Source: a virus
Length of the DNA: 64,000 bases
Strand: one strand, 5' to 3'
UHGV virus genome: UHGV-1351982
Shown here: positions 1 to 45,959 of the stretch, piece by piece
Numbering within the stretch: the first letter of the stretch is position 1
How the letters are laid out: every line of letters begins with the position of its first letter
Notes under the pieces: generated by a model
Database searches by the model: none
The model's input: the letters and a program-made list of their open reading frames with translations, nothing else
What the model was told of the DNA's origin: nothing
Translations under genes and position numbers: made by a program

Positions 1-159
1 GAAGATATTCTCGAAGAAGCTAAAGGTCAATTAAATCGCATTGGGATCTATGTTCCAGGCCTAAATGATGATTGATTTTCATTAGCCCAATCCTGATTAC
101 CGAGTCATTTTGGCTCGGTTTTCTCTGTGCTCAAAGACACTGATAGCACCTTCGGAAAA

Positions 160-196
160 ATTTTACTTGCAGGATGCTCAAAATCTTGATATAATA
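160..196 (+). promoter_or_regulatory. sigma70-type early promoter (extended -10 TGaTATAAT at 187-195)
   Basis: -35 TTGCAG about 17 bp upstream; AT-rich flanks; conserved downstream box TATTGAATTGAGAGA. Confidence 0.6.
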
Positions 197-691
197 TTTA
201 TATTGAATTGAGAGACATTAGTAAAAATTGATTTTGCTAATTTTTCTTGTTTACAATCCGCAATACGGAACAGTTAGGCTGCCCCATTAAGGGTTGTTTT
301 AACTATTACTAGTGTTTATACTGCATTAGTTAATTATCAATTAAGTGATCTGCGTACCCTGAATTCGGAAAGGTAAATCCAAACCGTGCATATTTAGCTC
401 GTTATATAGGCAGAGCTTTATATGGGGGTGCGAACGAAAAGAGCAGCGAATGGTGACACGTCCAGTAGCCACCTACCAATAGGATAGTGAGGGCAATCAG
501 AATCGGCTTAGCGGCCAATGACCTAGGTTCTGATCTGGATAAGAGTTAAGAGAGCGCAGCACTGAGGTATGATAACTTATTCATACTGCTTGATGATGAT
601 TAATGTTTGTGTAAATGGTAGTAATAGTTGTTCTATTCTTTTGAATAGTCCTAAAGAAAGATATCCGAATAACCAACATAGGAGTATTGTT

Positions 692-3481
692 GTGTTCTCA
701 ATCCTACAAGGTCACGCAGGATTTTCCAGAGATAAAGCCACTGGCATCTGGAAAGAGATCAAAGTGGAAGATTACACCTTTGCAAAGCGATTCTCTAAAG
801 AGCATCCAGAAGGTAAACCAGCTTCCATGCCCTTCAAATTTGATGTACTTGAAGAACTTGACCCGCAAAACCTTGCTGAAATGTTACCTATCATGCGTCG
901 TCTTACCAAAGACCCGCATATTGTAGCTATTCGTGGTAAATGTTTAGCTCCAAAAGATAATGTGCGTCGTACCAGGGGAAACTTTAACGTATCCAATCCT
1001 AGTCATATTATTGCTATGGACGTGGATGGTATTGTAGATACTGGTGGCTATGACAAGTTTAATCTTGTTGGCATGGCACGTCATATTATTAAGATGTTGA
1101 ATAGTATTAGTGAGGATATGTTTCCTCTTGATGCAGGGTTTATTGCCCATGCATCGTCTTCGGCTGGATTAAAACCAGGTATCCGAATGCACTTAATGCT
1201 AGAATCTAATGTCAAGGTAACGCAGGGACAGTTAAAGTTCTTATTTACATCTATCAATGACAGTAGTAAGCAAAAGTATGGCTTTGATATTGCTGACTTA
1301 GCTTATTATTCTTCTGTTCAGCTTCACTATTTTGCAGATCCCTTATTTGATGATGGTATAGTCGATCCGTTTAAAGCGGAGAATAAACCACGTCTTGTGT
1401 ATGTTAAGGGTTCGAAGGTGAATCTACCTAATAACCTAGTTGACTTTGAAACAACTAGAGGTGAGTTTAAAGAAGAGTTCTACTCCTTACTTGACCAAAT
1501 TAAAGGCAAGAAGGCTGCATCTGATAAAGTGGAAGAAACCATCAGCGAACTAGAAGAAGCTGAGGATGGAGTGTACCTGCGTATTATCCCAAAACTTTAT
1601 CACAGAGCGTTAGAAGATGGTGTTGACTTTACGTGGTTAGAACGTGAGATTAAACCAGCTTTATCTGAATATATTGCAACTAAAGATAATAGTCGTAATA
1701 TTCAGGATTACTTTAATAACGGTCGTAAGCAGGCTCTCAAAGCCTTTGTAAATAACTCCAAACGTGAGATTCCACCAAACTTAAAAGGTGTACCATTAAA
1801 ACGTCTAGACACAGATTCTCCACCAGAAGTTCCGTACCTGAAAATTAACATTGTACCCCCAAAAGGACATTTAACATTTGTTAAGGCAAGTCTTGGTACG
1901 GGTAAAACTACAGCAGTAACTAAGTGGCTAGATGCAGGTGTTCTTCCAGGAAACTTTATTGCAATCACAAATACTAGGGCACTTGTATCTTCTAACGCGA
2001 AGAAATTCGGTGCTGGTCAGTATGATAAGTCAGTTGATATGCTGAACTTCAAACGTGGTGCCATTGATCGTATGTCTTCAACTATTCACTCTATCCATAA
2101 GTTCAAGAGCTTTGTGGGTCAGATTGATACGATCTTTATTGATGAATGTGATGCAGTAATGAACGATCTGTTATTCGCTCCGGTTGTTAAAAACCGTCGT
2201 GAATGTATTCAGGTTCTTCGCGATATTCTTATTACTGCTAAAACTGTTATCTTATCTGATGGTGATATCAGTGCAGAAACGATTGAAGCCTATGGTTCTT
2301 TGATTGATTTTGATAAACCGGTTGCGTTCTATAATCATCACCGTAAAATGCTGGCGAAAGCTCACGCTTATGAATTCCCTGACGAATCCAGTATTTGGGT
2401 TGCACTTCAAACATCTCTAGAGATGGGTGAGAAGTCAATCCTAGTATCTGACTGTGGACCAGATGAACTGAATGAAAAGGGAATGGCATTACGTCGTAAT
2501 ACTGGTGCGTTAGTTAAAGAAATTCACTCAAACTCTACGTCTGATGTAGATATCCGACGTATTCTGGATTATACAACTAATGAGCTAATTGATCAACAGA
2601 TTGATTGTTTGTTATGTAGTCCATCTGTAACGAGTGGTGTTGACTTTAACTATTTTGATAATGTATTCGTAATCACTAGAACCTCAAACCAAGCGCCAAA
2701 CATGCGTTTCCAAGCAATCAGGCGCGACCGTGGTGCTCAGAACATTTATTATTTTATTGATAAATCTACGAGTGGATTTTCTGCGGGTTCCGAGCAATAT
2801 AATATTGACGAAGGTTGGATTGAGTTAGCCCAACAACTGTACGCACGCCGTCGTGAGCTGGAATCTAGAAACTATACTAGTACTTTGCGTTATTATCTGC
2901 TTGATCAGGGTGCAACTATCGATATTTTCAGCGAAAGCTGGGGAACTATCGAAGGTGCAGGCAAAGAGTATATAGAAGAGCGAATCAAAGCTATTTTGCA
3001 CTCAACTCCTGAATATTGCGCACCACGTCATGCAGACGCATATGAAGCTAAATTGCTTCTGGTTCGCTATTATCATCTGGATTCTATCAAAGATGTAACA
3101 GTGGAACATGTTGAACAGTATATCAAGGATAAACCGAATGATAGAGCTGCATTTTTCCATAAGATGCACGAGATGTTCTGGGAAGATATCAAGAAGTGTT
3201 CAAACGTAACAATCAAACCTTTTATTGAAGCTCTTAAGAATAAGAAGAAGGATTTCTTCCTTAAGACAGGTCAGAGTGCTAACCCAAAATATGCTCGTAT
3301 GTATCTTGGCATGATGGGTATCGGTAAAGATCTGGATACGGAAAAGATTGTGGACTGGTACAGAACTTACTGTAAGATCGAATGTATGCCGATTCCAGTT
3401 AAGTTTATGACAGATGAAGAACGTCAGATGCATGAGGAAGCTCTTGCTGAATTGGGAGCTAGAAATGACAGTGAAGAATAA
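692..3481 (+). CDS. putative replication origin-binding / initiator ATPase (P-loop, helicase-like)
   Basis: Track ORF 569-3481; likely start GTG 692 preceded by AGGAG. Walker A GTGKTT and Walker B-like IFIDECD motifs. Sits upstream of the replication module. Confidence 0.6.
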   Translation: MFSILQGHAGFSRDKATGIWKEIKVEDYTFAKRFSKEHPEGKPASMPFKFDVLEELDPQNLAEMLPIMRRLTKDPHIVAIRGKCLAPKDNVRRTRGNFNVSNPSHIIAMDVDGIVDTGGYDKFNLVGMARHIIKMLNSISEDMFPLDAGFIAHASSSAGLKPGIRMHLMLESNVKVTQGQLKFLFTSINDSSKQKYGFDIADLAYYSSVQLHYFADPLFDDGIVDPFKAENKPRLVYVKGSKVNLPNNLVDFETTRGEFKEEFYSLLDQIKGKKAASDKVEETISELEEAEDGVYLRIIPKLYHRALEDGVDFTWLEREIKPALSEYIATKDNSRNIQDYFNNGRKQALKAFVNNSKREIPPNLKGVPLKRLDTDSPPEVPYLKINIVPPKGHLTFVKASLGTGKTTAVTKWLDAGVLPGNFIAITNTRALVSSNAKKFGAGQYDKSVDMLNFKRGAIDRMSSTIHSIHKFKSFVGQIDTIFIDECDAVMNDLLFAPVVKNRRECIQVLRDILITAKTVILSDGDISAETIEAYGSLIDFDKPVAFYNHHRKMLAKAHAYEFPDESSIWVALQTSLEMGEKSILVSDCGPDELNEKGMALRRNTGALVKEIHSNSTSDVDIRRILDYTTNELIDQQIDCLLCSPSVTSGVDFNYFDNVFVITRTSNQAPNMRFQAIRRDRGAQNIYYFIDKSTSGFSAGSEQYNIDEGWIELAQQLYARRRELESRNYTSTLRYYLLDQGATIDIFSESWGTIEGAGKEYIEERIKAILHSTPEYCAPRHADAYEAKLLLVRYYHLDSIKDVTVEHVEQYIKDKPNDRAAFFHKMHEMFWEDIKKCSNVTIKPFIEALKNKKKDFFLKTGQSANPKYARMYLGMMGIGKDLDTEKIVDWYRTYCKIECMPIPVKFMTDEERQMHEEALAELGARNDSEE

Positions 3482-3698
3482 AAAGTGGGAGACAAGGAAG
3501 TTTCCCGTAAAAGAACGTAAAACTTCTGTTTACGATACTGCGGAGAAACTATGTAGGGTTGTACCACCTCGTCTCGCTGGTATCCCTAATGTCTCCATAT
3601 GGTTACTTAAACAACGGAAGACTCGTGTGTCTCTTCGCATTGGCTTTGAGTTAGATAAAGTCTATGCTGAACTTGCTTCTTTGCTCAAAGAATCGTAA
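3465..3698 (+). CDS. hypothetical small protein
   Basis: In-frame ATG inside track ORF 3414-3698, overlapping the end of the upstream gene; basic protein; weak support. Confidence 0.3.
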   Translation: MTVKNKKWETRKFPVKERKTSVYDTAEKLCRVVPPRLAGIPNVSIWLLKQRKTRVSLRIGFELDKVYAELASLLKES

Positions 3699-3704
3699 AA
3701 ATTT

Positions 3705-3736
3705 ATTTGCTTTCAGGAAAAATTTTCTGTATAATA
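3705..3736 (+). promoter_or_regulatory. sigma70-type early promoter (TTGCTT -35, TGTATAAT -10)
   Basis: 17-bp spacer; downstream CATAAATTTGAGAGAGGAG leader; drives gene at 3767. Confidence 0.7.
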
Positions 3737-3766
3737 GATTCATAAATTTGAGAGAGGAGTTTAAAT

Positions 3767-4471
3767 ATGGCTGGTTCTCGTAGAAAGAAACTTATCCATG
3801 AAATCCCTGATGAAACCTTTAAAAAGGTTATTGAACATCTGGAGAATGGTGGTACTAAGAAAGCAGCATGTGAAATGCTCGGTGTTTCTTCTAACCCAAC
3901 TATGGAACGAATGATCGAAGAATGGAGAGATCGTCAGGTTCAAGTTGCGGAAATGAAAAAGAAGAAGCGCGGAACACTGATTGAGGGTGTTGAGCTTGCA
4001 AACATAATTGAACAGTATCTTTCTGGTGATTCTTTTGAAGAAATTGCTGATCGTAACTATCGTTCTGTAGCGATGATTAAATCTGTTCTGGAACGTTATG
4101 GTGCTCTGCTTCGTTTAAACGATATTGTTGATCCATTGAATCCTCCGCTGATTCCTGATGATGCAATGGCAGAAGAGTTTGAAGTTGGTGAACTTGTTTG
4201 GGTTCCTGGCTATCAGTGTATTGGTGAGATCAAGAAAGCAATGACTAATCCAGTTGGTTGTTATCGTGTTTGGTTGTTATCAGAAGGTAAACAACAGAAC
4301 GTGCACTATATGCACTACGAATTAGCTTCTGTTAAACATCTGGAAAAGCTGGGTGTTGACGTTAAAGCTCTAGGCTTTAAGTGGAGTCGTGAAGAAGTTA
4401 TCACGTTGGTTAATGAAGCTGTTAAAGCTGCCCTGAAACTCGATAAAGAGAAAGGAAAACGCCGTGAGTAA
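3767..4471 (+). CDS. putative DNA-binding regulatory protein
   Basis: 234 aa ORF with GAGGAG RBS and a conserved early promoter upstream; N-terminal HTH-like segment (GGTKKAACEMLGVS). Confidence 0.6.
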   Translation: MAGSRRKKLIHEIPDETFKKVIEHLENGGTKKAACEMLGVSSNPTMERMIEEWRDRQVQVAEMKKKKRGTLIEGVELANIIEQYLSGDSFEEIADRNYRSVAMIKSVLERYGALLRLNDIVDPLNPPLIPDDAMAEEFEVGELVWVPGYQCIGEIKKAMTNPVGCYRVWLLSEGKQQNVHYMHYELASVKHLEKLGVDVKALGFKWSREEVITLVNEAVKAALKLDKEKGKRRE

Positions 4472-4718
4472 ACTAACTGATCTGTTAAAAGCTGGAGAGG
4501 TAAAATATCTCCAGCGAGATAGCTGGGAAAACAATACTTATTCTACTACTATTATCAAAGTAGATGTTGATAATAATGACATCGTAGAATTTACATGGTG
4601 GTGGTCTAAAGATGGACGCACTAAACTCACGCTAGACGATGCATCGTGGAAAACCACTGAGCTAACTCTAGACGAAGCTCTGGCCGACGATTGGGAGATC
4701 GTTGAACTAGATGTGTAG
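4464..4718 (+). CDS. hypothetical protein
   Basis: 84 aa ORF, GTG start overlapping the upstream stop (translational coupling). Confidence 0.5.
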   Translation: MSKLTDLLKAGEVKYLQRDSWENNTYSTTIIKVDVDNNDIVEFTWWWSKDGRTKLTLDDASWKTTELTLDEALADDWEIVELDV

Positions 4719-4737
4719 CAGTTACTGAAAAATTTCA

Positions 4738-4768
4738 GTTGCTTAATCCTGTAATTCTTGATATAATA
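4738..4768 (+). promoter_or_regulatory. sigma70-type early promoter (TTGCTT -35, TGATATAAT -10)
   Basis: 17-bp spacer; upstream of gene at 4826. Confidence 0.65.
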
Positions 4769-4825
4769 TTCTCATAGTTTGAAAGAACTATTCTGTTTAA
4801 TTCTTAATTAAGGAAATCGAAAAAT

Positions 4826-5236
4826 ATGACTACTCCAACTCAGTGGACTGATGAACTGTTCGAAAAAATGTCTTCCGACTACGTTGCTCGTATGGAGCAA
4901 TTCCCAGAAGATGAGCGTCCGGGCGTTAGCATGGAAATTGTTAGCGAAATTGCTCAGGAAAATGGTGTAACTCCGAATGGTTTCCGTATGAAGCTGACCA
5001 AAGCAGGTCTGTATATCAAGAAAGCTGCTGGCTCTACTTCTAAATCAAGCGCATCTACTGGAGAAAAAGCTTCTGGTGGTTCTCGTACTTCCAAAGCTCA
5101 GGCTCACTCCGATCTTCGCTCTGCATTCTCTGATGCTGGCTTAGCACCGGACTTCCTGGACGACGCAATCATCGACAAGCTGACCGGTAAAGCAGCTGCT
5201 CATCTGGCAGAAGCTATCCGAGCTATCACTAAGTAA
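4826..5236 (+). CDS. hypothetical early protein (host-like codon usage)
   Basis: 136 aa ORF, AAGGA RBS, conserved early promoter upstream; strong preference for ctg/cgt/ggt/ccg codons suggests high expression. Confidence 0.6.
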   Translation: MTTPTQWTDELFEKMSSDYVARMEQFPEDERPGVSMEIVSEIAQENGVTPNGFRMKLTKAGLYIKKAAGSTSKSSASTGEKASGGSRTSKAQAHSDLRSAFSDAGLAPDFLDDAIIDKLTGKAAAHLAEAIRAITK

Positions 5237-5272
5237 TTCTTAGATAAATCCACCAACACAAGGAATACAGCT

Positions 5273-5569
5273 ATGAATAAAGCTGAAATTATTGCTCAAT
5301 GCGAAAAATTTGGTGAGTTTTATCTTCATTACGAAAAACTTCGTCAGAAAGGAACCACGTACCTTCAGGGTACGATGGAATTTGATCCAGCTCAGGATAA
5401 ATACCTGGCTGAGCGTATTAAACGTGAGCGCATCCGTAAGCCGAAAGAAGATGAAATCCTTGTTTTCTCTCGTACTAATGATAGCTTCCGTTTCATTCCT
5501 GTTGCGAAAGTTCGCCGTGTGACGAGCCTCCAGTCAGAGTTAGATCGTGCTTCTCCAGTAGGCCGATAA
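5273..5569 (+). CDS. hypothetical protein
   Basis: 98 aa ORF with AAGGA RBS, followed by an intrinsic terminator. Confidence 0.55.
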   Translation: MNKAEIIAQCEKFGEFYLHYEKLRQKGTTYLQGTMEFDPAQDKYLAERIKRERIRKPKEDEILVFSRTNDSFRFIPVAKVRRVTSLQSELDRASPVGR

Positions 5570-5578
5570 GAAACCAAT

Positions 5579-5604
5579 TAGCCCCTATATGGGGCTTTTT
5601 GTAT
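5579..5604 (+). terminator. intrinsic terminator
   Basis: Hairpin AGCCCC-TATAT-GGGGCT followed by TTTTTGTAT. Confidence 0.7.
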
Positions 5605-5619
5605 ATTTGGGATATGTAA

Positions 5620-5928
5620 ATGAGCGATCAGGTAAATCAAAACTATGAAGGACACGTTGACGACCAGTCCATCATGCTTTGGGAGAAGGAGGGGGAACAA
5701 GTAAGACTAACCGTATCTGAATTTCGTGGGAATCTATACATGGGAATTCGTTACTGGCTCCAAGATATTACTGGAGAGTGGTTTCCAACGAAATCCGGCT
5801 TCTCTTTTCCTTATACCCTAGAAACTACATCACAGCTATTCTACGCTTTTACGCAAATCCTCAGTGAATCCGAGGTCTTGCATGAAGTACAGAAACGAGC
5901 TGAAGAACTCAAAGCCAAGAATGCCTAG
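5620..5928 (+). CDS. hypothetical protein
   Basis: 102 aa ORF followed by a hairpin plus T-run. Confidence 0.55.
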   Translation: MSDQVNQNYEGHVDDQSIMLWEKEGEQVRLTVSEFRGNLYMGIRYWLQDITGEWFPTKSGFSFPYTLETTSQLFYAFTQILSESEVLHEVQKRAEELKAKNA

Positions 5929-5945
5929 TTCTTGGCTTTTTCTTT
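5913..5945 (+). terminator. intrinsic terminator
   Basis: Hairpin AGCCAAGA...TCTTGGCT followed by TTTTTCTTT. Confidence 0.65.
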
Positions 5946-5954
5946 ATAAATGTA

Positions 5955-5985
5955 CTTGCTTTCGACTCAGTTTTCATATATAATA
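5955..5985 (+). promoter_or_regulatory. sigma70-type early promoter (TTGCTT -35, TATAAT -10)
   Basis: 17-bp spacer; conserved downstream box ATTTATATAAATTGATGAGAGGA. Confidence 0.7.
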
Positions 5986-6013
5986 TTTATATAAATTGAT
6001 GAGAGGATCAATT

Positions 6014-6214
6014 ATGGCAATGACAATAACACTTCCAAAGATTCAAGCAAAACTTAATTTGCTCTCCATAGCAAGAATCAATTATCAGGATAGTATCGGC
6101 ACTCCAAACCAGAAAGCGTACAAAGATGCGTGGTTGAAAGAGGCTGCTGATTTAGCTGGTATGGCTGCTCAGTATAATAAAGAACTCAAAATGGAAATTG
6201 CAGACGATGAATAA
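6014..6214 (+). CDS. hypothetical small protein
   Basis: Track ORF 5996-6214; ATG at 6014 lies 6 nt after GAGAGGA, just downstream of a conserved promoter. Confidence 0.5.
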   Translation: MAMTITLPKIQAKLNLLSIARINYQDSIGTPNQKAYKDAWLKEAADLAGMAAQYNKELKMEIADDE

Positions 6215-7178
6215 TGTAAAAGACTTTATCAAACGTTGTCAAGAAGCGTACTACCAGGGAATGAGTCTTATTTCCGATGAAGAATATGATCGTCTGATTA
6301 AAAGATTCCCGTTAGAGGAAGAAATCGGGCCGAAAGGTGATATCCCTCATTTGTATCGTATGTATTCTTTACAGAAAGTCTATTACGATCGTGGTGATAA
6401 AGCTCCATTTAACCCATTAGGTCAGGTTGAAACTGATAAGTTAGATGGTTGTGCGATTTCTCTATTATATATTAATGGTGAATTTGTTCAAGCGTTAACT
6501 CGTGGTAACGGTATTCTAGGGAATGATGTAACGCATAACGTTAAGATGCTGAACATTCCTAAAACTATTTCCCAAAGAGTACCAACTCAAATCACTGGTG
6601 AAGTTCTCATTACTAAAGAAGTAGAGAACAAACGTAACTACGCTTCGGGTGCTATTAACCTGAAAGATAGTGATGATTTCATACAACGTATTGGTGAAGG
6701 TGGTTTAATCTTCGTTGCATATGGTATCCAGTGTTCAGCGGAAACAGTCGGTATTACAGAAGCCTATTTAAAAGATATGCTTTGGCTAGAGAATGAGAAC
6801 TTCTTGACAGTTGTTAATGTTCGTTCCTTTTTTAAATGGATTCCGACGGACGGTAAAGTTGTTCGTATTAACGACAACAATAAATTCTTCCGTGAAGGTT
6901 GGACTAATAAATTTCCTCGTGGTGCATTTGCTATTAAAGAGGATGAAGAAGGCGAAATTACCACACTTGTTAAAGTTGAATGGCAAGTAGGGGCTTCTGG
7001 TAAAGTAACTCCAGTTGGTTATTTCGAGCCGGTGATTATTGATGATGCCACAATTGTTAAAGCAACTCTTAATAACGTTGATTATATTAACGCTCTCGAT
7101 TTAGAGATCGGTTGCCAGATTCGAGTGATTCGTGCTGGTGGTGTAATCCCTTGTATAGTAGAGCGAGTATACGACTAA
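6198..7178 (+). CDS. NAD-dependent DNA ligase, adenylation-domain subunit (ligase subunit A)
   Basis: 326 aa; KxDG adenylation motif (ETDKLDGCAIS); followed by a separate ORF carrying the Zn-finger/BRCT part; split ligase as recalled for T5. Exact start (TTG 6198 or ATG 6207) uncertain. Confidence 0.8.
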   Translation: MQTMNNVKDFIKRCQEAYYQGMSLISDEEYDRLIKRFPLEEEIGPKGDIPHLYRMYSLQKVYYDRGDKAPFNPLGQVETDKLDGCAISLLYINGEFVQALTRGNGILGNDVTHNVKMLNIPKTISQRVPTQITGEVLITKEVENKRNYASGAINLKDSDDFIQRIGEGGLIFVAYGIQCSAETVGITEAYLKDMLWLENENFLTVVNVRSFFKWIPTDGKVVRINDNNKFFREGWTNKFPRGAFAIKEDEEGEITTLVKVEWQVGASGKVTPVGYFEPVIIDDATIVKATLNNVDYINALDLEIGCQIRVIRAGGVIPCIVERVYD

Positions 7179-7320
7179 TTCGTAACCCTTTGCTACCCGT
7201 TTACCGTGTCGGAATTATAAAGTGGTTATTGACATTTTCGCCGCTTAGGTATATACTATTATCATTCAGTTGAGGGATAGAAAGTTATGGCGAGGGTAAG
7301 CAAAGTTAGTTAAAATTGTA

Positions 7321-7351
7321 GTTGCTAAATGCTTAAATACTTGCTATAATA
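7321..7351 (+). promoter_or_regulatory. sigma70-type early promoter (TTGCTA -35, TGCTATAAT -10) inside the split ligase locus
   Basis: 17-bp spacer; conserved downstream box ATTTATATAAATTGATAAGGAAG. Confidence 0.7.
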
Positions 7352-7380
7352 TTTATATAAATTGATAAGGAAGAAATTTG

Positions 7381-8160: not shown

Positions 8161-8920
8161 ACTGAACTGGAACGTAGAAGGTGTAACCGAGTCTCTGAAA
8201 GCAAAAGCCACTGCTCTGGGTGTTGCTGTAATCTCTCAAGAACAAGTAGCTGCTATCGCTGCTGAACTGGCTACCGAGACTGGTAAAGACGTTACCGCTC
8301 GCTCTGTTGGCTCTAAGCTGCGTAAAGAAGGTTTCGAAGTACAGAAAGCAAACGAAGTACAGAAATCCCCGTGGACTCCTGAGCAGGAAGCTGAACTGGT
8401 TGATTTCCTGAACGCTCATGCTGGTCAGTATACTTACGCTGAAATCGCTGCTGCTGTAGCTGGTGGTCAGTTCGGTGCTAAGCAGGTACAGGGTAAGATC
8501 CTGAGTCTGGAAATGACTGCTTCTGTTAAGCCAACCGAAAAAGCTGCTGCTGTTCGTTCCTTCACTCCTGACGAAGAAACTGATTTCGTTAATCAGGTTG
8601 TTGCTGGTGCTACTATTGAAGCTATCGCTGCTCACTTCGGTCGCAATATTAAGCAGATCCGTGGTAAAGCTCTGAGTCTGCTTCGTGAAGGTCGTATCGC
8701 TGCTATGCCGGTACAGGAAACTTCAAGTGCTAAAACTCGTGAAGATCTGTTAGAAGGTCTGGATCTGGCTAACATGACTGTTGCTGAGATCGCTGAGAAA
8801 ACTGGTAAGTCTGAGCGCGGTGTTAAATCTATGCTGTCTCGTCGTGGTCTGGTTGCTAAGGACTATGATGGTGCCGCTAAGCGTGCTAAACTGGATGCAA
8901 AAGCTGCGGCTGCTGAATAA
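8153..8920 (+). CDS. DNA-binding protein with four tandem HTH-like repeats (possibly abundant early protein)
   Basis: 255 aa; four ~60 aa internal repeats each with an IAxxxG...K HTH-like core (e.g. TVAEIAEKTGKSERGVKSMLSRRG); host-optimal codon usage. Confidence 0.6.
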   Translation: MSKLNWNVEGVTESLKAKATALGVAVISQEQVAAIAAELATETGKDVTARSVGSKLRKEGFEVQKANEVQKSPWTPEQEAELVDFLNAHAGQYTYAEIAAAVAGGQFGAKQVQGKILSLEMTASVKPTEKAAAVRSFTPDEETDFVNQVVAGATIEAIAAHFGRNIKQIRGKALSLLREGRIAAMPVQETSSAKTREDLLEGLDLANMTVAEIAEKTGKSERGVKSMLSRRGLVAKDYDGAAKRAKLDAKAAAAE

Positions 8921-8937
8921 TCTGGTAAATTAAACCT

Positions 8938-8970
8938 AAGGGGAGGGGGCTATGCTCCTTCCCCTTTTTG
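8938..8970 (+). terminator. intrinsic terminator
   Basis: GC-rich hairpin (AAGGGGAGGGGG...CCTTCCCCTT) plus TTTTTG, directly after gene 8153-8920. Confidence 0.6.
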
Positions 8971-9002
8971 CATTTAGAAGGCACGAAAGCGTGCAAAGGA
9001 GA

Positions 9003-10475
9003 ATGACCTTGTTTAACGTGCAAGCTGTAGTGTTGAAGATGCTTCTCGCTTCTGAACAGAAGCAAATAGCATTGGAAACATTCTCAAAACTGCATAAAGA
9101 TCATTTTAATGACGCTTTCTCCTCAATTTACCAAGCCGTCCAGAATTATTATAAGAAATATAACGCAATGCCGTCCATTGACGCACTGATGCTTGAGGCC
9201 AATAGGAACGCCCGCCTTTCTCAAGCTCTTGTCGTCTTAGCTAACACTCAAATTCCAGAAGTGAGCATGGAACAGGCGCTTGAAGTCCTAGAAGCCGAAT
9301 ATACACAGGATCTATTCCTGAAACTTCTAGAAACAGACGTGCTTCAAGATTTAACAATGCTGGATCAGGGAGAAATTCTCAACCGAGTTGCCTCCCTTCA
9401 CTTAAAATTAGAAGAGAAAGTAACGAATACTGGAAAGGTATTCAACGCAGACACAATGCGTATTTTCCAGAGAGAAGAAGATACCAAACTGAACTTGATC
9501 GCTCTTGGTATTTGTAATGAGTTCGACGCTCAAATTGGTTTAGCTCGCACAGAAACGTTACTGCTTGGTGGTTGGCGTGGTACTGGTAAATCCATTATCT
9601 GTTCAAACATACAGGTTCAGCAATATTTGAATGGAGACATTGCTCCATATTTCTCAATTGAGATGAAAGAGCACGAAGTGTTTAGACGTAATCTGGCTAT
9701 GTTAGCTGGAGTATCTGCATTAGCAATGCGTAATAACACTCTTGAAGGTGCTGCTCTGTTGAGATTAGCCAGAACTAGGGCTAGAATGTTTAATGGTGGT
9801 GAAGAGCTTTTCGATAACTTCGTTAAGCAATACACTATGGCTAAAATGAGTGACTTCTATGATATGGAAAGTAAACTCCTTGAAGGCTATGAGCTTCACA
9901 CTCCTATGATCATCGTTTACGATCCTGAACTGTCTATTACGACGGTTGACGTAGAATTAAATAAACTAGTTGCTAAATATGGTGATAAGGTTACTGTAGC
10001 TCTTCTAGACTATATTAACCAAACAAGACTTCCAGATTCAAAGACCATTGATATGTATGACTGGAAAGAACAGATGGTTGTTAGTTCATCTTTCAAATCT
10101 ATATGCCAGAAACATAACGTGGCTGGTGTTGCCCCTTACCAGATTGACCAAGATGGTAGAACGCGTATGTCTAAAGGGATTCTTGATTCCGCAGATATGG
10201 CTGCTAATCTTAACGCTGCAAAAGCTGATAATGGTCAAGGTGCTATTATGTTTGATTTCGTTAAGACTCGTTCCTCTGATAGTGTGAAGTTTATGCCTAA
10301 GATGAACTGGGAAACTCTACGAATGGATAACACTACCAACCTAGCAATGGAAGATATTGCGCAAATGGAAGCTGAGTTCGTTATTCCTATTGAAAAGGAT
10401 AAACCAGCTCAACCTAAACGTGCTAAGAAAGACAAAGCTGAAAATTCAACAGGTGAACAGGCCAGCGATATATGA
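9003..10475 (+). CDS. replicative DNA helicase (DnaB-like)
   Basis: Track ORF 8952-10475; ATG 9003 follows AAAGGAG and clears the upstream terminator hairpin; P-loop GGWRGTGKS; immediately precedes primase. Confidence 0.75.
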   Translation: MTLFNVQAVVLKMLLASEQKQIALETFSKLHKDHFNDAFSSIYQAVQNYYKKYNAMPSIDALMLEANRNARLSQALVVLANTQIPEVSMEQALEVLEAEYTQDLFLKLLETDVLQDLTMLDQGEILNRVASLHLKLEEKVTNTGKVFNADTMRIFQREEDTKLNLIALGICNEFDAQIGLARTETLLLGGWRGTGKSIICSNIQVQQYLNGDIAPYFSIEMKEHEVFRRNLAMLAGVSALAMRNNTLEGAALLRLARTRARMFNGGEELFDNFVKQYTMAKMSDFYDMESKLLEGYELHTPMIIVYDPELSITTVDVELNKLVAKYGDKVTVALLDYINQTRLPDSKTIDMYDWKEQMVVSSSFKSICQKHNVAGVAPYQIDQDGRTRMSKGILDSADMAANLNAAKADNGQGAIMFDFVKTRSSDSVKFMPKMNWETLRMDNTTNLAMEDIAQMEAEFVIPIEKDKPAQPKRAKKDKAENSTGEQASDI

Positions 10476-11362
10476 GTAGAATAACAGAACTACTTGATCT
10501 GAAAGGCATTGAATACAAAGACACAGGTGGGGACATCCTCATCTGTTGTCTCAATCCAGATCATGATGATAAACACCCAAGCTTGCGTATTGACCCTGAA
10601 TCAGGTATTATGCATTGCTTGAGCTGTGGCTTCGGTAGAGGAATACCGAGCATTTACCATTATTTTAATGAGACTCAGTACAGACAGTCACCAAGATTGT
10701 CACAAGTACGTAAAAAGATTTCAGAGATTAGGAATGGATCTACGAATCTTGCAATTCCTGAATCTGCTTACCTTTTCGAAGGTGATTTCCGAGGTATCAG
10801 TTCTAAGACCTTGAAGAAATATTTTGCTTTCCAACATCAAGCAGACTGGGAAGGCAGAATTGTATTCCCAATAACAGATGCTGTTGGACGCAATATCCTA
10901 TTCCTGGGACGTTCTATAAACAGTTCTGCCCCTCCTAAATACTTAGTAAAACCAAAACAAGTTTCACCACCAATTTTCCCTGTACGATATAATACACCAG
11001 TTCTTGTTCTAGTTGAAGGTATCTTTGATATGTTAAATCTAGAAGATAACGGTGTGGATTATGCTTCTTGCTGCTTTGGTACACATCAGTTTACATCTGA
11101 TAACATTGCCGATAAGTTCAGTCCTTACATTATTGCTGGAGTAAGAGTAGTAGTTATCCTATTAGATAATGATGCCTCTGGTAATAAAGCCGCACAAGCA
11201 CTAGCGAAGCTAATTCGTACAAAAACGCGTTTAACACCTGTAGTTGGTAACTTCCTTCTTCCAGAAGGCAAAGACCCAGGTGATTTAAATAAAGAAGAGA
11301 TCGATATGTTGGCTCAACGTATTGAAATTTTAGTTGCCGAATCGCTCAAAGATTTGGTATAA
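10472..11362 (+). CDS. DNA primase (DnaG-like: zinc finger + TOPRIM)
   Basis: 296 aa; zinc-binding CLNPDHDDKHPS...CLSCG; TOPRIM-like VLVEGIFDMLNL ... LLDNDASG; start overlaps helicase stop. Confidence 0.75.
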   Translation: MSRITELLDLKGIEYKDTGGDILICCLNPDHDDKHPSLRIDPESGIMHCLSCGFGRGIPSIYHYFNETQYRQSPRLSQVRKKISEIRNGSTNLAIPESAYLFEGDFRGISSKTLKKYFAFQHQADWEGRIVFPITDAVGRNILFLGRSINSSAPPKYLVKPKQVSPPIFPVRYNTPVLVLVEGIFDMLNLEDNGVDYASCCFGTHQFTSDNIADKFSPYIIAGVRVVVILLDNDASGNKAAQALAKLIRTKTRLTPVVGNFLLPEGKDPGDLNKEEIDMLAQRIEILVAESLKDLV

Positions 11363-11424
11363 TATATTGGTAAGTTAGAGAAGAAACACTGAAGTTATAC
11401 TTACTTACCAAAAGGAGACTAAAT

Positions 11425-13992
11425 TTGAAAATTGCAGTAGTTGATAAAGCTCTAAATAACACTCGTTATGATAAACACTTCCAGCTTTATGGTGAGGAAG
11501 TTGATGTATTCCATATGTGTAACGAGAAGTTATCTGGTCGTTTGCTGAAAAAGCATATTACAATCGGAACTCCAGATAACCCGTTCGATCCGAACGATTA
11601 CGATTTTGTTGTACTAGTTGGTGCTGAACCTTTCCTGTATTTCGCAGGTAAGAAAGGTATCGGTGATTATACTGGTAAACGTGTGGAGCATGGCGGCTAT
11701 GCCAACTGGATTGCAAGTATTAGTCCAGCTCAGCTACACTTTAAACCTGAAATGAAACCAGTTTTCGATGCAACTGTAGAAAGTATTCATGACATTATTA
11801 ATGGTCGTGAGAAGATTGCAAAAGCTGGTGATTATCGTCCTATTACTGATCCAGACGAAGCTGAAGAATACATTAAGATGGTGTATAACATGGTTATCGG
11901 ACCTGTCGCATTCGACTCCGAAACCTCAGCTTTGTACGCTCGTGATGGTTATCTGCTTGGTGTTTCTATGTCTCACCAAGAGTATCAGGGTGTTTATATT
12001 GACTCTGACAGCATCACCGAAGTAGCTGTACATTATCTCCAGAAAATTCTGGATAGCAAGAATCATCAGATCGTTTTTCATAACTTGAAGTTCGATATGC
12101 ACTTTTATTCCTATCATTTAGGACTTTCCTTTGAGAAAGCACATAAAGAGCGTAGACTTCATGATACCATGTTACAACACTATGTTCTCGATGAACGTCG
12201 TGGTACTCACGGCTTGAAATCTCTGGCTATGAAGTATACTGACATGGGCGATTACGACTTTGAACTGGATAAGTTCAAGGATGATTATTGCAAAGCACAT
12301 AAAATCAAGAAAGAAGATTTCAGCTATGATCTGATTCCATTTGATATTATGTGGCCTTATGCTGCAAAAGATACCGATGCTACTCTGCGTCTGCATAACT
12401 TCTTCTTACCGAAAATTGAGAAGAATGAAAAACTTCGCAGTCTATACTATGATGTTCTGATGCCTGGTTGCGTATTCCTGCAACGTGTTGAAGATCGTGG
12501 TGTACCAATTTCTGTTGATCGCTTGAAAGAAGCTCAGTATCAGTTAACTCACAACCTGAACAAGGCTCGTGAAAAGCTGTATACTTATCCAGAAGTCGTT
12601 CAGCTAGAGAAAGATCAGAACAAAGCATTTAACCCGAACTCTGTTAAGCAACTTCGTGTTCTTCTGTTTGATTATGTTGGTCTGACTCCAACTGGTAAAC
12701 TGACAGATACAGGTGCAGATTCTACAAACGCAGAAGCTCTGAATGAATTGGCTACTCAGCACCCGATTGCGAAAACTCTGCTAGAGATTCGTAAGCTGAC
12801 TAAGCTGATCTCTACTTATGTTGAGAAGATTCTTCTGAGCATCGATGCAGATGGTTGCATTCGTACCGGTTTCCACGAACACATGACTACTTCTGGTCGT
12901 CTGAGTTCTTCTGGTAAGCTAAACCTGCAACAGTTACCGCGTGATGAATCTATTATCAAGGGTTGTGTAGTAGCTCCCCCTGGATATCGTGTAATCGCAT
13001 GGGACTTAACAACTGCGGAAGTTTATTACGCTGCTGTACTGTCTGGTGACAGAAACATGCAACAAGTATTTATCAACATGAAGAATGAGCCTGATAAATA
13101 CCCTGACTTCCACTCAAACATCGCACACATGGTATTTAAACTGACCTGTGAACCACGTGATGTTAAGAAGCTGTTCCCAGCTCTGCGTCAGGCTGCTAAG
13201 GCAATTACCTTCGGTATTCTGTATGGTTCTGGCCCAGCTAAAGTAGCTCATTCTGTTAACGAAGCTCTTCTGGAACAGGCTGCTAAGACAGGCGAACCGT
13301 TTGTTGAATGTACCGTTGCAGATGCGAAGGACTATATCGAAACTTACTTCGGTCAGTTCCCTCAGCTTAAGCGTTGGATTGATAAGTGCCACGATCAGAT
13401 CAAGAACTTTGGATTCATCTATAGTCACTTTGGTCGTAAGCGTCGTCTGCACAACATCCATTCCGAAGATCGTGGTGTTCAGGGTGAAGAAATCCGTTCT
13501 GGATTTAACGCAATCATTCAGTCTGCATCTTCTGATAGCCTGCTGTTAGGTGCTATTGATGCTGATGAAGAAATCCTATCCCTGGGTCTAGGAAAAGAGA
13601 TGAAGATCGTCATGTTGGTTCACGACTCCGTGGTTGCTATTGTACGTGAAGATCTGATTGATCAATATAACGAGATTCTGATTCGTAACATCCAGAAGGA
13701 TCGTGGTATTAGTATCCCTGGTTGCCCAATCGGTATTGATTCTGATTCTGAGAAAGGTGGTTCTCGTGACTACTCTTGTGGTAAGATGAAGAAACAGCAC
13801 CCATCAATCGCTTGTATTGATGATGATGAGTATACTCGTTATGTTAAGGGTGTATTACTCGATGCAGATTTCGAGTATAAGAAGTTAGCTGCAATGGATA
13901 AAGAGCATCCAGACCACAGCAAGTACAAGGATGATAAGTTTATTGCTGTATGTAAAGATCTGGATAATGTGAAAAGGATTTTAGGTGCTTGA
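11425..13992 (+). CDS. DNA polymerase, family A, T5-type (3'-5' exonuclease plus polymerase domains)
   Basis: 855 aa, the size recalled for T5 DNA polymerase; exonuclease motif AFDSETSAL; strong AAAGGAG RBS before TTG start. Confidence 0.9.
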   Translation: MKIAVVDKALNNTRYDKHFQLYGEEVDVFHMCNEKLSGRLLKKHITIGTPDNPFDPNDYDFVVLVGAEPFLYFAGKKGIGDYTGKRVEHGGYANWIASISPAQLHFKPEMKPVFDATVESIHDIINGREKIAKAGDYRPITDPDEAEEYIKMVYNMVIGPVAFDSETSALYARDGYLLGVSMSHQEYQGVYIDSDSITEVAVHYLQKILDSKNHQIVFHNLKFDMHFYSYHLGLSFEKAHKERRLHDTMLQHYVLDERRGTHGLKSLAMKYTDMGDYDFELDKFKDDYCKAHKIKKEDFSYDLIPFDIMWPYAAKDTDATLRLHNFFLPKIEKNEKLRSLYYDVLMPGCVFLQRVEDRGVPISVDRLKEAQYQLTHNLNKAREKLYTYPEVVQLEKDQNKAFNPNSVKQLRVLLFDYVGLTPTGKLTDTGADSTNAEALNELATQHPIAKTLLEIRKLTKLISTYVEKILLSIDADGCIRTGFHEHMTTSGRLSSSGKLNLQQLPRDESIIKGCVVAPPGYRVIAWDLTTAEVYYAAVLSGDRNMQQVFINMKNEPDKYPDFHSNIAHMVFKLTCEPRDVKKLFPALRQAAKAITFGILYGSGPAKVAHSVNEALLEQAAKTGEPFVECTVADAKDYIETYFGQFPQLKRWIDKCHDQIKNFGFIYSHFGRKRRLHNIHSEDRGVQGEEIRSGFNAIIQSASSDSLLLGAIDADEEILSLGLGKEMKIVMLVHDSVVAIVREDLIDQYNEILIRNIQKDRGISIPGCPIGIDSDSEKGGSRDYSCGKMKKQHPSIACIDDDEYTRYVKGVLLDADFEYKKLAAMDKEHPDHSKYKDDKFIAVCKDLDNVKRILGA

Positions 13993-14482
13993 TTTCAAAT
14001 TGCCCGTATATGCTTTACGGGCGTTTGTATCAATTGAGCAGGAAGGTGATTATTCCGTAATTACAACAAGATATAATAAATATGTGCTGGATAACAGGGA
14101 GTTGCCTGGCACATTCTCTCAACGTAGGTTAGCCTTATTTGAGAAGCGGAAAGAATTACCTTATAAGCTCTATCCTATTCGTGGTAGAATATCAATGTTG
14201 TCCCAATTAGTTGGGTCAAAGCGTAGCCAGTTCATAGATTCTGATGGAAATCTCATTAACTGGAAGAAAACTACGTTCTATGATGTTATCACGTCTAAAG
14301 TTCTGCATTCTGCAAGAATTTATAATGGAAAGTATCAATGCTATGTGGCTAAAGTCCCATATCCATTCGTGCTATCCTATGTTCCAGCTTATATAAGCTA
14401 TATTCTGGTAAATAATAGCCCTGTTATTTATCAAGTCCATCAAGAGGAGCCTGAAATTCCTAGACTTAGAATAAAATTATGA
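13985..14482 (+). CDS. hypothetical protein
   Basis: 165 aa ORF with GTG start overlapping the polymerase stop; no recognisable motif. Confidence 0.4.
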   Translation: MLDFKLPVYALRAFVSIEQEGDYSVITTRYNKYVLDNRELPGTFSQRRLALFEKRKELPYKLYPIRGRISMLSQLVGSKRSQFIDSDGNLINWKKTTFYDVITSKVLHSARIYNGKYQCYVAKVPYPFVLSYVPAYISYILVNNSPVIYQVHQEEPEIPRLRIKL

Positions 14483-15831
14483 AGGTTGTTATATCTAATA
14501 AAGCCTATTTCAAGCCCGATGATGAACTCTGGGATTATTGTAGTAAGCAAACCACTTATCACATCGAGACAATGACTAGTAAATACCCTATTATGTATAA
14601 GAATAGTGGTGTTGTTGCTAAAGAGATTAAGTGGATTCCCCTTACGCGCCTGGATTTACTAGATGCTAAGGGAGTAAAATACGAATTAGTTGATAAACGC
14701 ACATTAGCTCCGGTAGAAATACCAGAACCTCAGTTCAAGCTACGTGAAGAAGATCAGCTTCCTATATATGAAGAGTGCGATGATACCTGTATTATTAATG
14801 GTAAGCCTGGATTTGGTAAAACTATCCTAGCTCTAGCTCTTGCATATAAGTTTGGCCAGAAAACTCTGGTAATCTGCACTAACACATCCATTCGTGAAAT
14901 GTGGGCTGCAGAAGTTCGTAAATGGTTTGGATTCGAGCCGGGTATTATAGGTTCTGGAAAGTATAACATTGATCCACCAATCGTGGTCAGTAATATACAA
15001 ACAGTGAACAAACATGCGAATAATCTTTCTAAGGTATTCGGTACTGTTATAGTTGATGAAGTTCACCACTGTGTAGCTACAACTTTCACTAATTTCCTAG
15101 AGATCTCATGTGCTCGCTACAAGATCGGTCTATCAGGTACATTAAAACGTAAAGATGGGCTACAAGTTATATTCAAAGATTTCTTTGGATATAAGATCTT
15201 TAGTCCCCCTGTTAATAACACTGTTCCACCCACAATCCATAGGTACTCCGTACCTGTCGAGTTATCAGGAAACCAGAACGTACCATGGGCACTACGTGCT
15301 AATGATGTATATAATCATCCTGAATATCGGGAAACTATTATAAACCTAGCACATTTATATGTGTCTATGGGGCATAAGGTTCTCTTTGTAAGTGATAGGA
15401 CGGAACTAATCCAAACAATATTAGAAGCTCTCGCACAACGTGGTGTTACAACCTATGAGATTATAGGTGCAACTCCTTTGGATGACCGATTGAGAATCCA
15501 GAAAGATGTAGCGGAGGGCGGACCCTGTGTGCTTGCAGCAGCTCAGAGTATCTTCTCAGAAGGTATTTCTCTTAACGAGCTGTCTTGTTTAATAATGGGA
15601 AGTCTCATTAATAATGAATCTCTCATAGAACAGTTAGCAGGCCGCGTTCAACGTATTGTTGACGGAAAGCTAGATCCGATTGTTGTAGATTTAATTATGA
15701 AAGGAGGTACTGGTTTAAGACAGGCTTCTGGACGTATGGCCGTGTATCGCAATAATGCATGGAAAACTATTACTATGACTCCGGAGAAAGCAGTACAATT
15801 AGCTAAAATTGCATTTGGCAACTGCTCATAA
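14479..15831 (+). CDS. D10: SF2 DNA helicase (T5 D10-like)
   Basis: 450 aa; Walker A GKPGFGKT, DEVH box (VIVDEVHH); position after polymerase. Confidence 0.8.
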   Translation: MKVVISNKAYFKPDDELWDYCSKQTTYHIETMTSKYPIMYKNSGVVAKEIKWIPLTRLDLLDAKGVKYELVDKRTLAPVEIPEPQFKLREEDQLPIYEECDDTCIINGKPGFGKTILALALAYKFGQKTLVICTNTSIREMWAAEVRKWFGFEPGIIGSGKYNIDPPIVVSNIQTVNKHANNLSKVFGTVIVDEVHHCVATTFTNFLEISCARYKIGLSGTLKRKDGLQVIFKDFFGYKIFSPPVNNTVPPTIHRYSVPVELSGNQNVPWALRANDVYNHPEYRETIINLAHLYVSMGHKVLFVSDRTELIQTILEALAQRGVTTYEIIGATPLDDRLRIQKDVAEGGPCVLAAAQSIFSEGISLNELSCLIMGSLINNESLIEQLAGRVQRIVDGKLDPIVVDLIMKGGTGLRQASGRMAVYRNNAWKTITMTPEKAVQLAKIAFGNCS

Positions 15832-15844
15832 TTATTGTATAATA
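15814..15844 (+). promoter_or_regulatory. sigma70-type early promoter (TTGGCA -35, TGTATAAT -10), first of a tandem pair
   Basis: Conserved downstream box ATACACATAAATTTGAGAGAG, followed by a hairpin at ~15862-15895. Confidence 0.6.
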
Positions 15845-15913
15845 TACACATAAATTTGAGAGAGAAAGTTTCGGATTGATAAGAAAGTCCGAAGCAGAAA
15901 AATAAAAATTGTA

Positions 15914-15945
15914 CTTGTCAAATCCTCCCGATTTAATGTATAATA
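15914..15945 (+). promoter_or_regulatory. sigma70-type early promoter (TTGTCA -35, TGTATAAT -10), second of the tandem pair
   Basis: 18-bp spacer; conserved downstream box ATATACATAAATTGATGAGAGA; drives gene at 15972. Confidence 0.7.
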
Positions 15946-15971
15946 TATACATAAATTGATGAGAGACAAAA

Positions 15972-29169: not shown

Positions 29170-29224
29170 AGTTAATTTCTCCTCTTAATAACAATATTAT
29201 AATAGGATTGGAAAATTTTATCAA

Positions 29225-29272
29225 GAAATTTTTATTTTTCCATAAAGAAAAGGAGGACATAAAGTCCTCCTC
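29225..29272 (-). terminator. intrinsic terminator (- strand) after tape measure gene
   Basis: Hairpin GGAGGAC-ATAAA-GTCCTCC; T-rich tract follows on the - strand. Confidence 0.65.
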
Positions 29273-45903: not shown

Positions 45904-45927
45904 ACAATCTCCTTCTTTAAAAATGTA

Positions 45928-45959
45928 TTTGCTTAGATCCCTCTATTTTGCTATAATAT
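45928..45959 (+). promoter_or_regulatory. sigma70-type promoter for the lipoprotein gene (TTGCTT -35, TGCTATAAT -10)
   Basis: Conserved downstream box ATATTTATAAATTAAACAGAGGA; lies in the divergent region shared with the receptor-binding gene. Confidence 0.65.

Follow-up and report, generated by a model that had tools for sequence, protein, structure and literature searches.

A family of T5-type early promoters with a conserved downstream box in a T5-like Salmonella phage genome

The present analysis concerns a family of early promoters, and the conserved box that lies 3′ of their −10 hexamers, in a 64,000-nucleotide stretch of the virus genome UHGV-1351982 (the whole stretch is called the window, and + is the strand as given). 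The closest described systems are the early promoters of bacteriophage T5, among them PN25; this promoter family, its downstream region and the influence of that region on escape have reportedly been in the literature since 1985–86 (Gentz and Bujard 1985 and Kammerer et al. 1986, as summarised in later papers), and the pQE expression vectors are based on PN25 derivatives. The early class of T5 is switched on after the second step of DNA transfer and is off at late times (PMC7472727). At N25, the footprint of RNA polymerase (RNAP) extends from −50 to +20, and the open complex is extremely stable, with escape being the rate-limiting step (PMC12464699). The 'antiDSR' swap of positions +3..+20 of N25 reduces full-length RNA to about 1/10, yields more and longer abortive RNAs and raises the escape half-time from 3 min to ~45 min, and the native N25 sequence has, according to the authors, evolved for faster escape (PMC12464699). 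An ATATT discriminator was described in all known T5 early promoters, with late promoters differing mainly there (Klimuk et al. 2020, PMC7472727). The T5 protein gpT5.026 binds the beta subunit of RNAP, lowers its affinity for the −12/+2 strand 8-fold and weakens its binding to the −5/+2 stretch, while early RNA rises ~5-fold and late RNA falls in the T5.026 amber mutant (PMC7472727).

On their sequence, the sites in the window are T5 early promoters of the classical kind, with the downstream region documented for these, and the feature is thus already known. Eight + strand sites had been put forward in an earlier note on this DNA as a family of near-identical early promoters, and all eight exist, with TATAAT at 190, 3730, 4762, 5979, 7345, 15838, 15939 and 45952 (the last had been given as 45953, off by one). 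The T5 record (GenBank AY587007) annotates 'putative early promoter' T5P32–T5P38 and T5P41 at places equivalent to sites in the window; T5P32, P33, P34, P35, P37, P38 and P41 correspond to 190, 3730, 4762, 5979, 7345, 15939 and 45952, respectively, in front of replication genes and llp, so their designation as early promoters holds. T5P8 and T5P9 correspond to two further strong members, 63261 (−) and 63769 (−), and the family is therefore larger than the eight sites listed before and extends beyond positions 160–15,950, where it had been placed. Two repeats annotated in the T5 record, 'repeat b' (TATAATATTTATATAAATTGATGAG) and 'repeat c' (TGTATAATAGATTCATAAATTTGAGAGAG), extend over the sequence from the −10 hexamer to ~+15, and they are the two box subtypes found in the window. 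The T5 early promoters (PN25, T5P6–T5P38 and T5P41) have the same architecture at orthologous positions, although some individual −35 and discriminator bases differ. The site at 3730 is identical to the published PN25 (PMC4447248) at 64 of 69 positions, with one mismatch, in the spacer, from −35 to +27, and the downstream ATGGCTGGTTCTCG matches the published N25 cassette (PMC9303389). Its +1..+20 is the very sequence studied in the comparison of N25 with N25antiDSR (Kammerer et al. 1986; Hsu laboratory); those studies deal with one promoter, whereas the window holds the word at ~10 promoters per 64 kb and relatives hold it across genera, which is information on conservation, not on kinetics. 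As a discovery, the family carries little weight, since few bacterial promoters have been studied so thoroughly and the T5 record marks it too, but for annotation it offers ten or more predicted transcription-unit starts for this phage. The ten family members are as follows.

154..221, + strand, early promoter, T5P32 orthologue, upstream of the origin-binding-protein gene: TTGCAG, 17 bp spacer, TGA-TATAAT 190–195, discriminator ATTTAT, predicted +1 A 202, transcribed ATTGAATTGAGAGAC; no near start codon, leader of ~490 nt.
3694..3761, + strand, PN25 (T5P33) orthologue: TTGCTT, 17 bp spacer, TATAAT 3730, discriminator AGATTC, predicted +1 A 3742, ATAAATTTGAGAGAGGAG, ATG 3767 (+26).
4726..4793, + strand, early promoter, T5P34 orthologue: TTGCTT, 17 bp spacer, TGA-TATAAT 4762, discriminator ATTCTC, predicted +1 A 4774, ATAGTTTGAAAGAA; ATG 4826 (+53) with its own Shine-Dalgarno sequence.
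5943..6010, + strand, early promoter, T5P35 orthologue: TTGCTT, 17 bp spacer, TATAAT 5979, discriminator ATTTAT, predicted +1 A 5991, ATAAATTGATGAGAGGA, ATG 6014 (+24).
7309..7376, + strand, early promoter, T5P37 orthologue: TTGCTA, 17 bp spacer, TGC-TATAAT 7345, discriminator ATTTAT, predicted +1 A 7357, ATAAATTGATAAGGAAG; ligase-B start at ~+22 to +25.
15802..15869, + strand, distal promoter of a tandem pair: TTGGCA, 17 bp spacer, TATAAT 15838, discriminator ATACAC, predicted +1 A 15850, ATAAATTTGAGAGAG; start codon not adjacent (~+123).
15903..15970, + strand, proximal promoter of the tandem pair, T5P38 orthologue: TTGTCA, 18 bp spacer, TATAAT 15939, discriminator ATATAC, predicted +1 A 15951, ATAAATTGATGAGAGAC, ATG 15972 (+22).
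45916..45983, + strand, early promoter of the llp lipoprotein gene, T5P41 orthologue: TTGCTT, 17 bp spacer, TGC-TATAAT 45952, discriminator ATATTT, predicted +1 A 45964, ATAAATTAAACAGAGGA, ATG 45987 (+24).
63230..63297, − strand, extra family member, T5P8 orthologue: TTGCTT, 17 bp spacer, TATAAT with first T 63261, discriminator AAGTTC, predicted +1 A 63249, ATAAATTAATGAGAGAGAGG, ATG 63221 (+29).
63738..63805, − strand, extra family member, T5P9 orthologue: TTTGCT in the −35 region, TATATA with first T 63769, predicted +1 A 63757, ATAAATTGATGAGAAGGA, ATG 63733 (+25).

At 15838, promoter hexamers are present in the window, while the equivalent place in T5 is marked only as 'repeat c copy 7'. 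The positions of +1 were carried over from N25, the −12/+2 non-template strand of which is TATAATAGATTCAT (PMC7472727), placing +1 at the A of CATAAAT. The units share an order of parts, namely a UP-like A/T-rich block AAAAATTT (~−47..−37), the −35 element TTGCT(T/A), a spacer of 17–18 bp, TATAAT and the box. Among the eight listed sites, the −35 element described as TTGCTT-like is TTGCTT at four (3730, 4762, 5979 and 45952), the others having TTGCAG, TTGCTA, TTGGCA and TTGTCA, while the spacer agrees with the 17–18 bp given before, being 17 bp throughout save for 18 bp at 15939. The extended −10 element TGnTATAAT, which had been ascribed to the whole family, was found at 190, 4762, 7345 and 45952 and not at the other four; at 3730, 15838 and 15939 the TG lies directly against the hexamer (TGTATAAT), and 5979 has no TG, so that the TG of the family units stands at −15/−14 or −14/−13. 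TTGnnn and TATAAT separated by 17 ± 1 bp occur at all eight listed sites and at 63261 (−). A generic sigma70 scan of the window was uninformative, with 59 sites where 51.5 were expected; the TTGCTT sites escape it, since this hexamer shares just three of six positions with TTGACA.

The box is made up of three parts. The first is the untranscribed discriminator at −6..−1, with the consensus AT(A/T)T(T/A)(C/T); the second is the +1 A with an A/T-rich initial transcribed sequence ATAAATTGA (+1..+9), with TTGA at ~+7; and the third is a purine tract GAGAG(G) starting from ~+10. The claim that this segment runs into the ribosome-binding site is borne out at seven of the ten sites, where the purine tract is the Shine-Dalgarno sequence and the start codon lies at +22..+29, and fails at 190, 4762 and 15838, where the box is present although the next start codon is at ~+490, +53 and +123; the ribosome-binding site is therefore not the whole explanation of the box. 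Two subtypes were distinguished, ATTTAT-ATAAATTGATGAG and AnATTC-ATAAATTTGAGAGAG. The conserved downstream segment is thus real, but 'near-identical' was too strong a description, with the literal 17-mer ATATTTATATAAATTGA being exact only at 5983 and 7349 and giving five matches at up to three mismatches against 1.09 expected. An A is found at −6 in nine of the ten members. The literal ATATT is carried within the family only by 45952, and also by the weaker polymerase promoter at 11358, the other discriminators being ATTTAT, ATATAC, ATACAC, ATTCTC, AGATTC and AAGTTC. Like the ATATT of Klimuk et al. 2020, discriminators of family members are A/T-rich with A at −6 (for example ATATTT, ATATAC and ATTTAT), but they match it literally at some sites only, and PN25 itself has AGATT. 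Neither the pre-early-type promoter at 52073 (−) nor the late-type one at 29201 (−) carries the box; their discriminators are ACAGAT and ATTGTT, respectively.

A position weight matrix built from the bases 3′ of the −10 hexamer alone gave 15 matches at ≥12 bits in the window, against a mean of 2.0 (maximum 6) in shuffled controls, and 11 of the top 13 matches lie directly 3′ of TATAAT or TATATA; this excess and this position indicate that the box is real and tied to promoters. In the window family (n = 10, a set chosen partly on the box), +1..+10 holds 10.3 bits against 8.2 bits for the −10 hexamer. An independent set of 30 annotated T5 early promoters gave 3.4 bits for the discriminator, 5.0 bits for +1..+10 and 2.9 bits for +11..+18, with 9.4 bits for the −10 hexamer and 6.3 bits for the −35 hexamer. 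The A/T-rich block at ~−43 (consensus TAAAAnTTnA) accounts for 9.4 bits in the window family, compared with 6.9 bits in the T5 set.

Eight orthologous promoter sets were also compared between genera, using the phages Klebsiella Roth39, Providencia PR1, Vibrio phi3 and Vibrio D302, in which promoters were located by requiring TTG at −35, a −10 hexamer near the consensus and A/T-rich sequence upstream, with all sequence 3′ of the −10 hexamer ignored. The between-genera pairwise identity was 0.99 for the −10 hexamer, 0.67 for the −35 hexamer, 0.58 for the discriminator and 0.53 for +1..+10, while both the spacer and +11..+20 reached 0.39, and the position-specific signal fades beyond ~+10. The discriminator and the first ten transcribed bases exceed the spacer in identity, indicating that purifying selection acts on them. 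At the N25 locus, the spacers of the window, PR1 and phi3 are unrelated, yet AG(A/T)T(T/C)C-ATAAATT(T/G) is kept in all three. The box is kept in phages of Salmonella, Escherichia and Providencia and partly in those of Vibrio; in D302, the most distant phage, the discriminator type is retained and the transcribed word is now CAAAATCA. Together with the information content, these identities uphold the view that conservation goes beyond what sigma70 needs for recognition of the hexamers. Repeat history also plays a part. The T5 'repeat a' is a stretch of 32 nt common to the upstream halves of T5P10 and T5P31 with one substitution, spacer bases included, and the variant ATTTATATTGAATTGAGAGAC, which in both the window and T5 stands before the origin-binding-protein gene, stands before the D10/D11 region in Roth39.

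The word was likewise found outside the T5-like phages. The exact pattern TATAATANNTNNATAAATTGATGAG was found in 103 stretches when the IMG/VR viral collection was scanned, while two control patterns with the last 13 bases permuted had no matches there. Of these stretches, 73 are T5-like by DNA similarity and ~7 more by −35 type and contig size, whereas ~23 (~8 distinct promoters) belong to contigs that show no DNA similarity to T5-like phages and next to none at the protein level. The loci examined on such contigs carry genes for a T4 gp32-like single-strand-binding protein or a T4 gp43-like polymerase, and for the gp32-like protein tested the closest counterparts occur in Synechococcus T4-like phages (56%) and Pelagibacter phage HTVC008M (53%). 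The −35 elements of these contigs differ (CTTTACT, GTGTACA, GTGTTGAC), but TATAAT-N6-ATAAATTGATGAG is identical and is followed by ATG at the aquatic T4-like loci L015, L016, L022, L042, L066, L070, L075, L085 and L089, and several further similar copies occur within these loci; among promoters other than the seeds, 9 of 39 match ATAAATTGA at ≥7 of 9 positions, against 4 of the 98 remaining TATAAT occurrences. Early-type promoters are present in the first 50 kb of T4, none with ATAAATTGA, and by this absence T4 was ruled out as the source of the word. In 596 Gb of bacterial and archaeal genomes a single match was obtained, on a contig of 29% GC with no −35 or UP context, which we treated as chance; the absence from bacteria is weak evidence because exact matching is biased towards repeated families. 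The aquatic pattern could be explained either by convergence on an optimum for RNAP and the ribosome or by horizontal spread of promoter cassettes. T4-type early promoters and mobile promoter–stem-loop cassettes are said to have been described by Liebig and Rueger in 1989 and by Arbiol et al. in 2010. T4-type phages, too, have numerous near-identical strong early promoters per genome, conserved beyond the hexamers and often beside terminator-like hairpins. Hints of such PeSL-like cassettes in the window are the terminator-like hairpins at 99–119, just upstream of the promoter with its −10 at 190, and at 5911–5939, preceding the promoter with its −10 at 5979, together with the 'repeat a' of T5 and the box variant at differing loci.

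Taken as a whole, these are very probably sigma70-dependent early promoters of the T5 type, with the composite box being the downstream half of the promoter, composed of a discriminator, an escape-aiding initial transcribed sequence and a Shine-Dalgarno sequence. Unmodified host RNAP would read the early-class promoters once the second-step DNA transfer is complete. The discriminator, in the transcription bubble, would set the stability of the open complex and the start site, and ATAAATTGA would be scrunched into RNAP during initial transcription, leading to fast escape from a very tightly bound promoter, while the 3′ end of the box would double as a ribosome-binding site at most sites. We infer that the same mechanism may operate at every family member, by analogy with N25. 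We also infer that the discriminator may add to the shut-off of the early class through RNAP modified by gpT5.026-type proteins. The earlier note had offered a shared 5′ leader function, such as a stability element, a regulator-binding site or coordinated shut-off, for the conserved region and left its best-documented role, that of a promoter part acting in escape, unnamed; as to coordinated shut-off, partial published support exists for the untranscribed discriminator ATATT (gpT5.026-modified RNAP, PMC7472727) and for that part only. Several points weigh against this account. The mechanism is transferred to this phage from T5 N25, and the dissection covers the N25 sequence alone, with no tests of the subtype ATTTAT-ATAAATTGATGAG found in the literature. 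Escape explains a preference for A/T- and purine-rich sequence but not obviously the exact word ATAAATTGA, kept even in unrelated phages. The effect of gpT5.026 is moderate and concerns −5/+2 only, which makes the link to shut-off weak (PMC7472727). The literature search returned nothing relevant on genome-wide 5′-end mapping of T5 or on the literal box word.

Besides the promoter role, the conserved part might act as RNA, with the 5′ leader AUAAAUUGAUGAGAGG giving protection to the mRNA or serving as an A/U-rich unstructured landing pad for ribosomes, an explanation that we regard as somewhat unlikely though worth keeping in mind. The fixed start-codon distance at seven of ten sites with the purine tract as Shine-Dalgarno sequence speaks for it, as does the prediction that +1..+10 is unpaired in most leaders, and A/U-rich leaders can enhance translation via ribosomal protein S1. 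The discriminator half of the box is untranscribed, however, the box is kept at the three sites lacking a near start codon, and +11..+20 is no more alike between genera than the spacer. Folding of the leaders (+1..+45) gave different folds or none, with z-scores from +1.0 to −4.0 and no shared structure, and no Rfam family reached the gathering score anywhere in the window, on which ground a known RNA element was dismissed; the proposal of a stability element is not supported by these leaders, and a 5′ stability hairpin was ruled out as a family property. An unstructured A/U-rich, translation-enhancing leader is plausible as an extra function at the seven sites with a near start codon. Alternatively, the box could be a DNA operator for a phage-encoded regulator that switches the early class off or on together, apart from or besides RNAP. 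Within the window the box is class-specific in being absent at 52073 (−) and 29201 (−), the mechanism of the T5 early-to-late switch has been stated to be unknown (PMC7472727), and a 12-bp palindrome ATTTATATAAAT is centred on the start site at 5979 and 7345. The palindrome is absent from the N25-type copies, so the family has no dyad symmetry in common, and the sole factor shown to act here works via RNAP and not by DNA binding (PMC7472727). Given in addition that the same word occurs in T4-like aquatic contigs sharing almost no proteins with T5-like phages, and that a between-genera identity of 53–58% is loose for an operator, we find this option decidedly improbable.

The similarity might instead be a matter of history, with promoter cassettes duplicated or homogenised by recombination or gene conversion, as the 'repeats' annotation of T5 treats them. 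The sharing of 'repeat a' by T5P10 and T5P31 extends to spacer bases that have no need for conservation, Roth39 has the variant ATTTATATTGAATTGAGAGAC at another locus than the window and T5, and terminator-like hairpins abut several promoters. Between genera, however, the spacers have fallen to background while the discriminator and +1..+10 have not, the box is retained as far as Providencia and partly Vibrio phages, and experiment shows that the N25 sequence matters (PMC12464699), leaving history alone as a highly doubtful explanation of the family. Even further from likely, and in our view barely credible, is that (T/C)ATAAA at −1..+5 is a −10-like element that sigma70 would re-bind, causing a promoter-proximal pause at which a phage factor would load. 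TATAAA matches TATAAT at five of six positions and CATAAA at four of six, and one or the other lies at −1..+5 in eight of the ten members. In lambdoid late promoters such as lambda PR′, −10-like pause elements occupy a comparable position, and the sigma70-dependent pause elements of lambda PR′ and lacUV5 likewise present a −10-like hexamer in the early transcribed region, but here the critical last T of the element is an A. No antiterminator or Q-like factor is known for T5 to our knowledge. The N25 literature describes escape by ~+11, and no report of a sigma-dependent pause was found there (PMC12464699). The occurrence of the word in both T5-like siphoviruses and aquatic T4-like myovirus contigs raises the idea that TATAAT-A..T..-ATAAATTGA(T)GAG is a phage-specific downstream promoter module selected in unrelated lineages, which we put forward tentatively and consider unlikely on balance. 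If it were so, the early temporal class and its shut-off would be encoded 3′ of the −10 hexamer and read by phage-modified RNAP or another factor, and the word ATAAATTGA would be more than a generic A/T-rich aid to escape.

In addition to the family proper, weaker relatives of these promoters were located in the window, with further −10 hexamers at 42230 (−) and 52828. Ppol, the DNA-polymerase promoter, has been shown by primer extension to be an early promoter in T5 (PMC7472727). The relatives and partial copies are listed below.

11322..11389, + strand, weaker relative, DNA-polymerase promoter: TTGCCG, 18 bp spacer, TGG-TATAAT 11358, discriminator ATATTG; the transcribed sequence differs, GTAAGTTAGAGAAG, and is predicted to fold into a 5′ hairpin.
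7216..7283, + strand, weaker relative, T5P36 orthologue: TTGACA, 17 bp spacer, TATACT 7252, ATTATC, transcribed ATTCAGTTGAGGGA.
60162..60229, − strand, upstream half of the family only, box absent (AAAGATCAAAAGTTAAAAC): TTGACG, 17 bp spacer, TGG-TATAAT 60193.
42199..42266, − strand, promoter-like site inside the late-gene block: TTTACA, 17 bp spacer, TATACT, early-type ATATTC ATACAGTTGAGGAG.
52792..52859, + strand, box-like site in pre-early non-coding sequence: TATAAT ATACTT ATAAATTAAAGAGAAAT, with a poor −35 and no gene nearby.
~29160..29240, − strand, late-type promoter, T5P39 orthologue: TTGATA, 17 bp spacer, TATAAT with first T 29201, early box absent.

The GTG at 42198, just after the promoter-like site in the late-gene block, opens a reading frame of 145 aa and lies in a gap of the T5 alignment (window 42183–42217). 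A sequence similar to that at 52792–52859 was observed in T5 at ~5995–6030, and the presence of box-like sequence in the pre-early region indicates that the box is not strictly limited to the early region. The late-type promoter at 29201 (−) is followed by ATTAAGAGGAGAAATTAACTATG, which is nearly the same as the synthetic ribosome-binding site 'RBSII' of the pQE and pDS vectors.

By its sequence relationships, the window itself is a T5-like Salmonella phage. Bases 1–20,000 are 99.3% identical to Salmonella phage PRF-SP13, and hundreds of other T5-like phages (Demerecviridae) also match. The relative JNwz02 (99.0% identical) is classed as Epseptimavirus, while the window is grouped with the Salmonella T5-like phages by its closest relatives. 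The whole window is collinear with T5 (58925 to 112981, then 83 to 16753), and the passage from 112981 to 83 in T5 order means that it spans the genome end with the terminal repeat in single copy; the flanks are 85–93% identical to T5. Positions 1–22,000 hold the early replication genes on the + strand, namely those for the origin-binding protein, D2, D3, two ligase subunits, D5, helicase, primase, polymerase, D10, D11, exonucleases, flap endonuclease and dUTPase. Beyond these genes there follow the late structural genes (−), llp (+), the pre-early region and the left early region (−), in that order.

A few observations were also made on individual leaders and start codons. The tandem promoters at 15802–15970 (+) are 101 bp apart, and a hairpin at 15870–15893 (z = −4.0) lies in the leader of the distal one; the same locus carries three promoter copies in Roth39 and two each in PR1 and phi3. 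The box of the promoter with its −10 at 5979 contains an ATG at 5999 (ATTGATGAGAGG, +9), and the equivalent codon is annotated as the start of a small gene in JNwz02. The gene more likely starts at the in-frame ATG at 6014, which has GAGAGGA as its Shine-Dalgarno sequence 7 nt upstream, so the start codon of the relative appears to have been called inside the promoter box.

The leader of ~490 nt at 202–692 (+) precedes the GTG (693) of the origin-binding-protein gene, which has a conserved TAGGAG Shine-Dalgarno sequence. It contains no open reading frame longer than 43 aa, its RNA fold has a z-score of −4.1, and the box is part of a long hairpin at its 5′ end. A second promoter-like site was seen at 228–257, and a comparably long gap precedes the origin-binding-protein gene in Roth39, PR1, phi3 and D302. 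This stretch might belong to a replication origin, or it might be a non-coding RNA or a structured leader. In the predicted DNA-polymerase mRNA, the 5′ hairpin is formed by pairing of 11369–11375 with 11403–11409 (GGTAAGT/ACTTACC), directly after which come a Shine-Dalgarno sequence, AAGGAG, and a start codon, TTG at 11425. Compared by eye, the stem is the same in Roth39 and PR1, while in Vibrio phi3 another stem, GGGTGACT/AGTCACCC, takes its place. The hairpin may stabilise the mRNA or act as a translational operator like that of T4 gp43.

At the helicase/primase gene junction (10472), an HNH homing-endonuclease gene present in JNwz02 is absent from the window, and T5 has a different insert there (69703–70228). 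The exact DnaA-box consensus TTATCCACA occurs only four times in the window, at 52917, 52966, 56399 and 56460, with near-matches alongside. These boxes make up two inverted clusters, 52905–52974 (+), just downstream of the box-like site at 52792–52859, and 56387–56468 (−), which flank part of the pre-early region and are the counterparts of the annotated T5 inverted repeats C/D and C′/D′.

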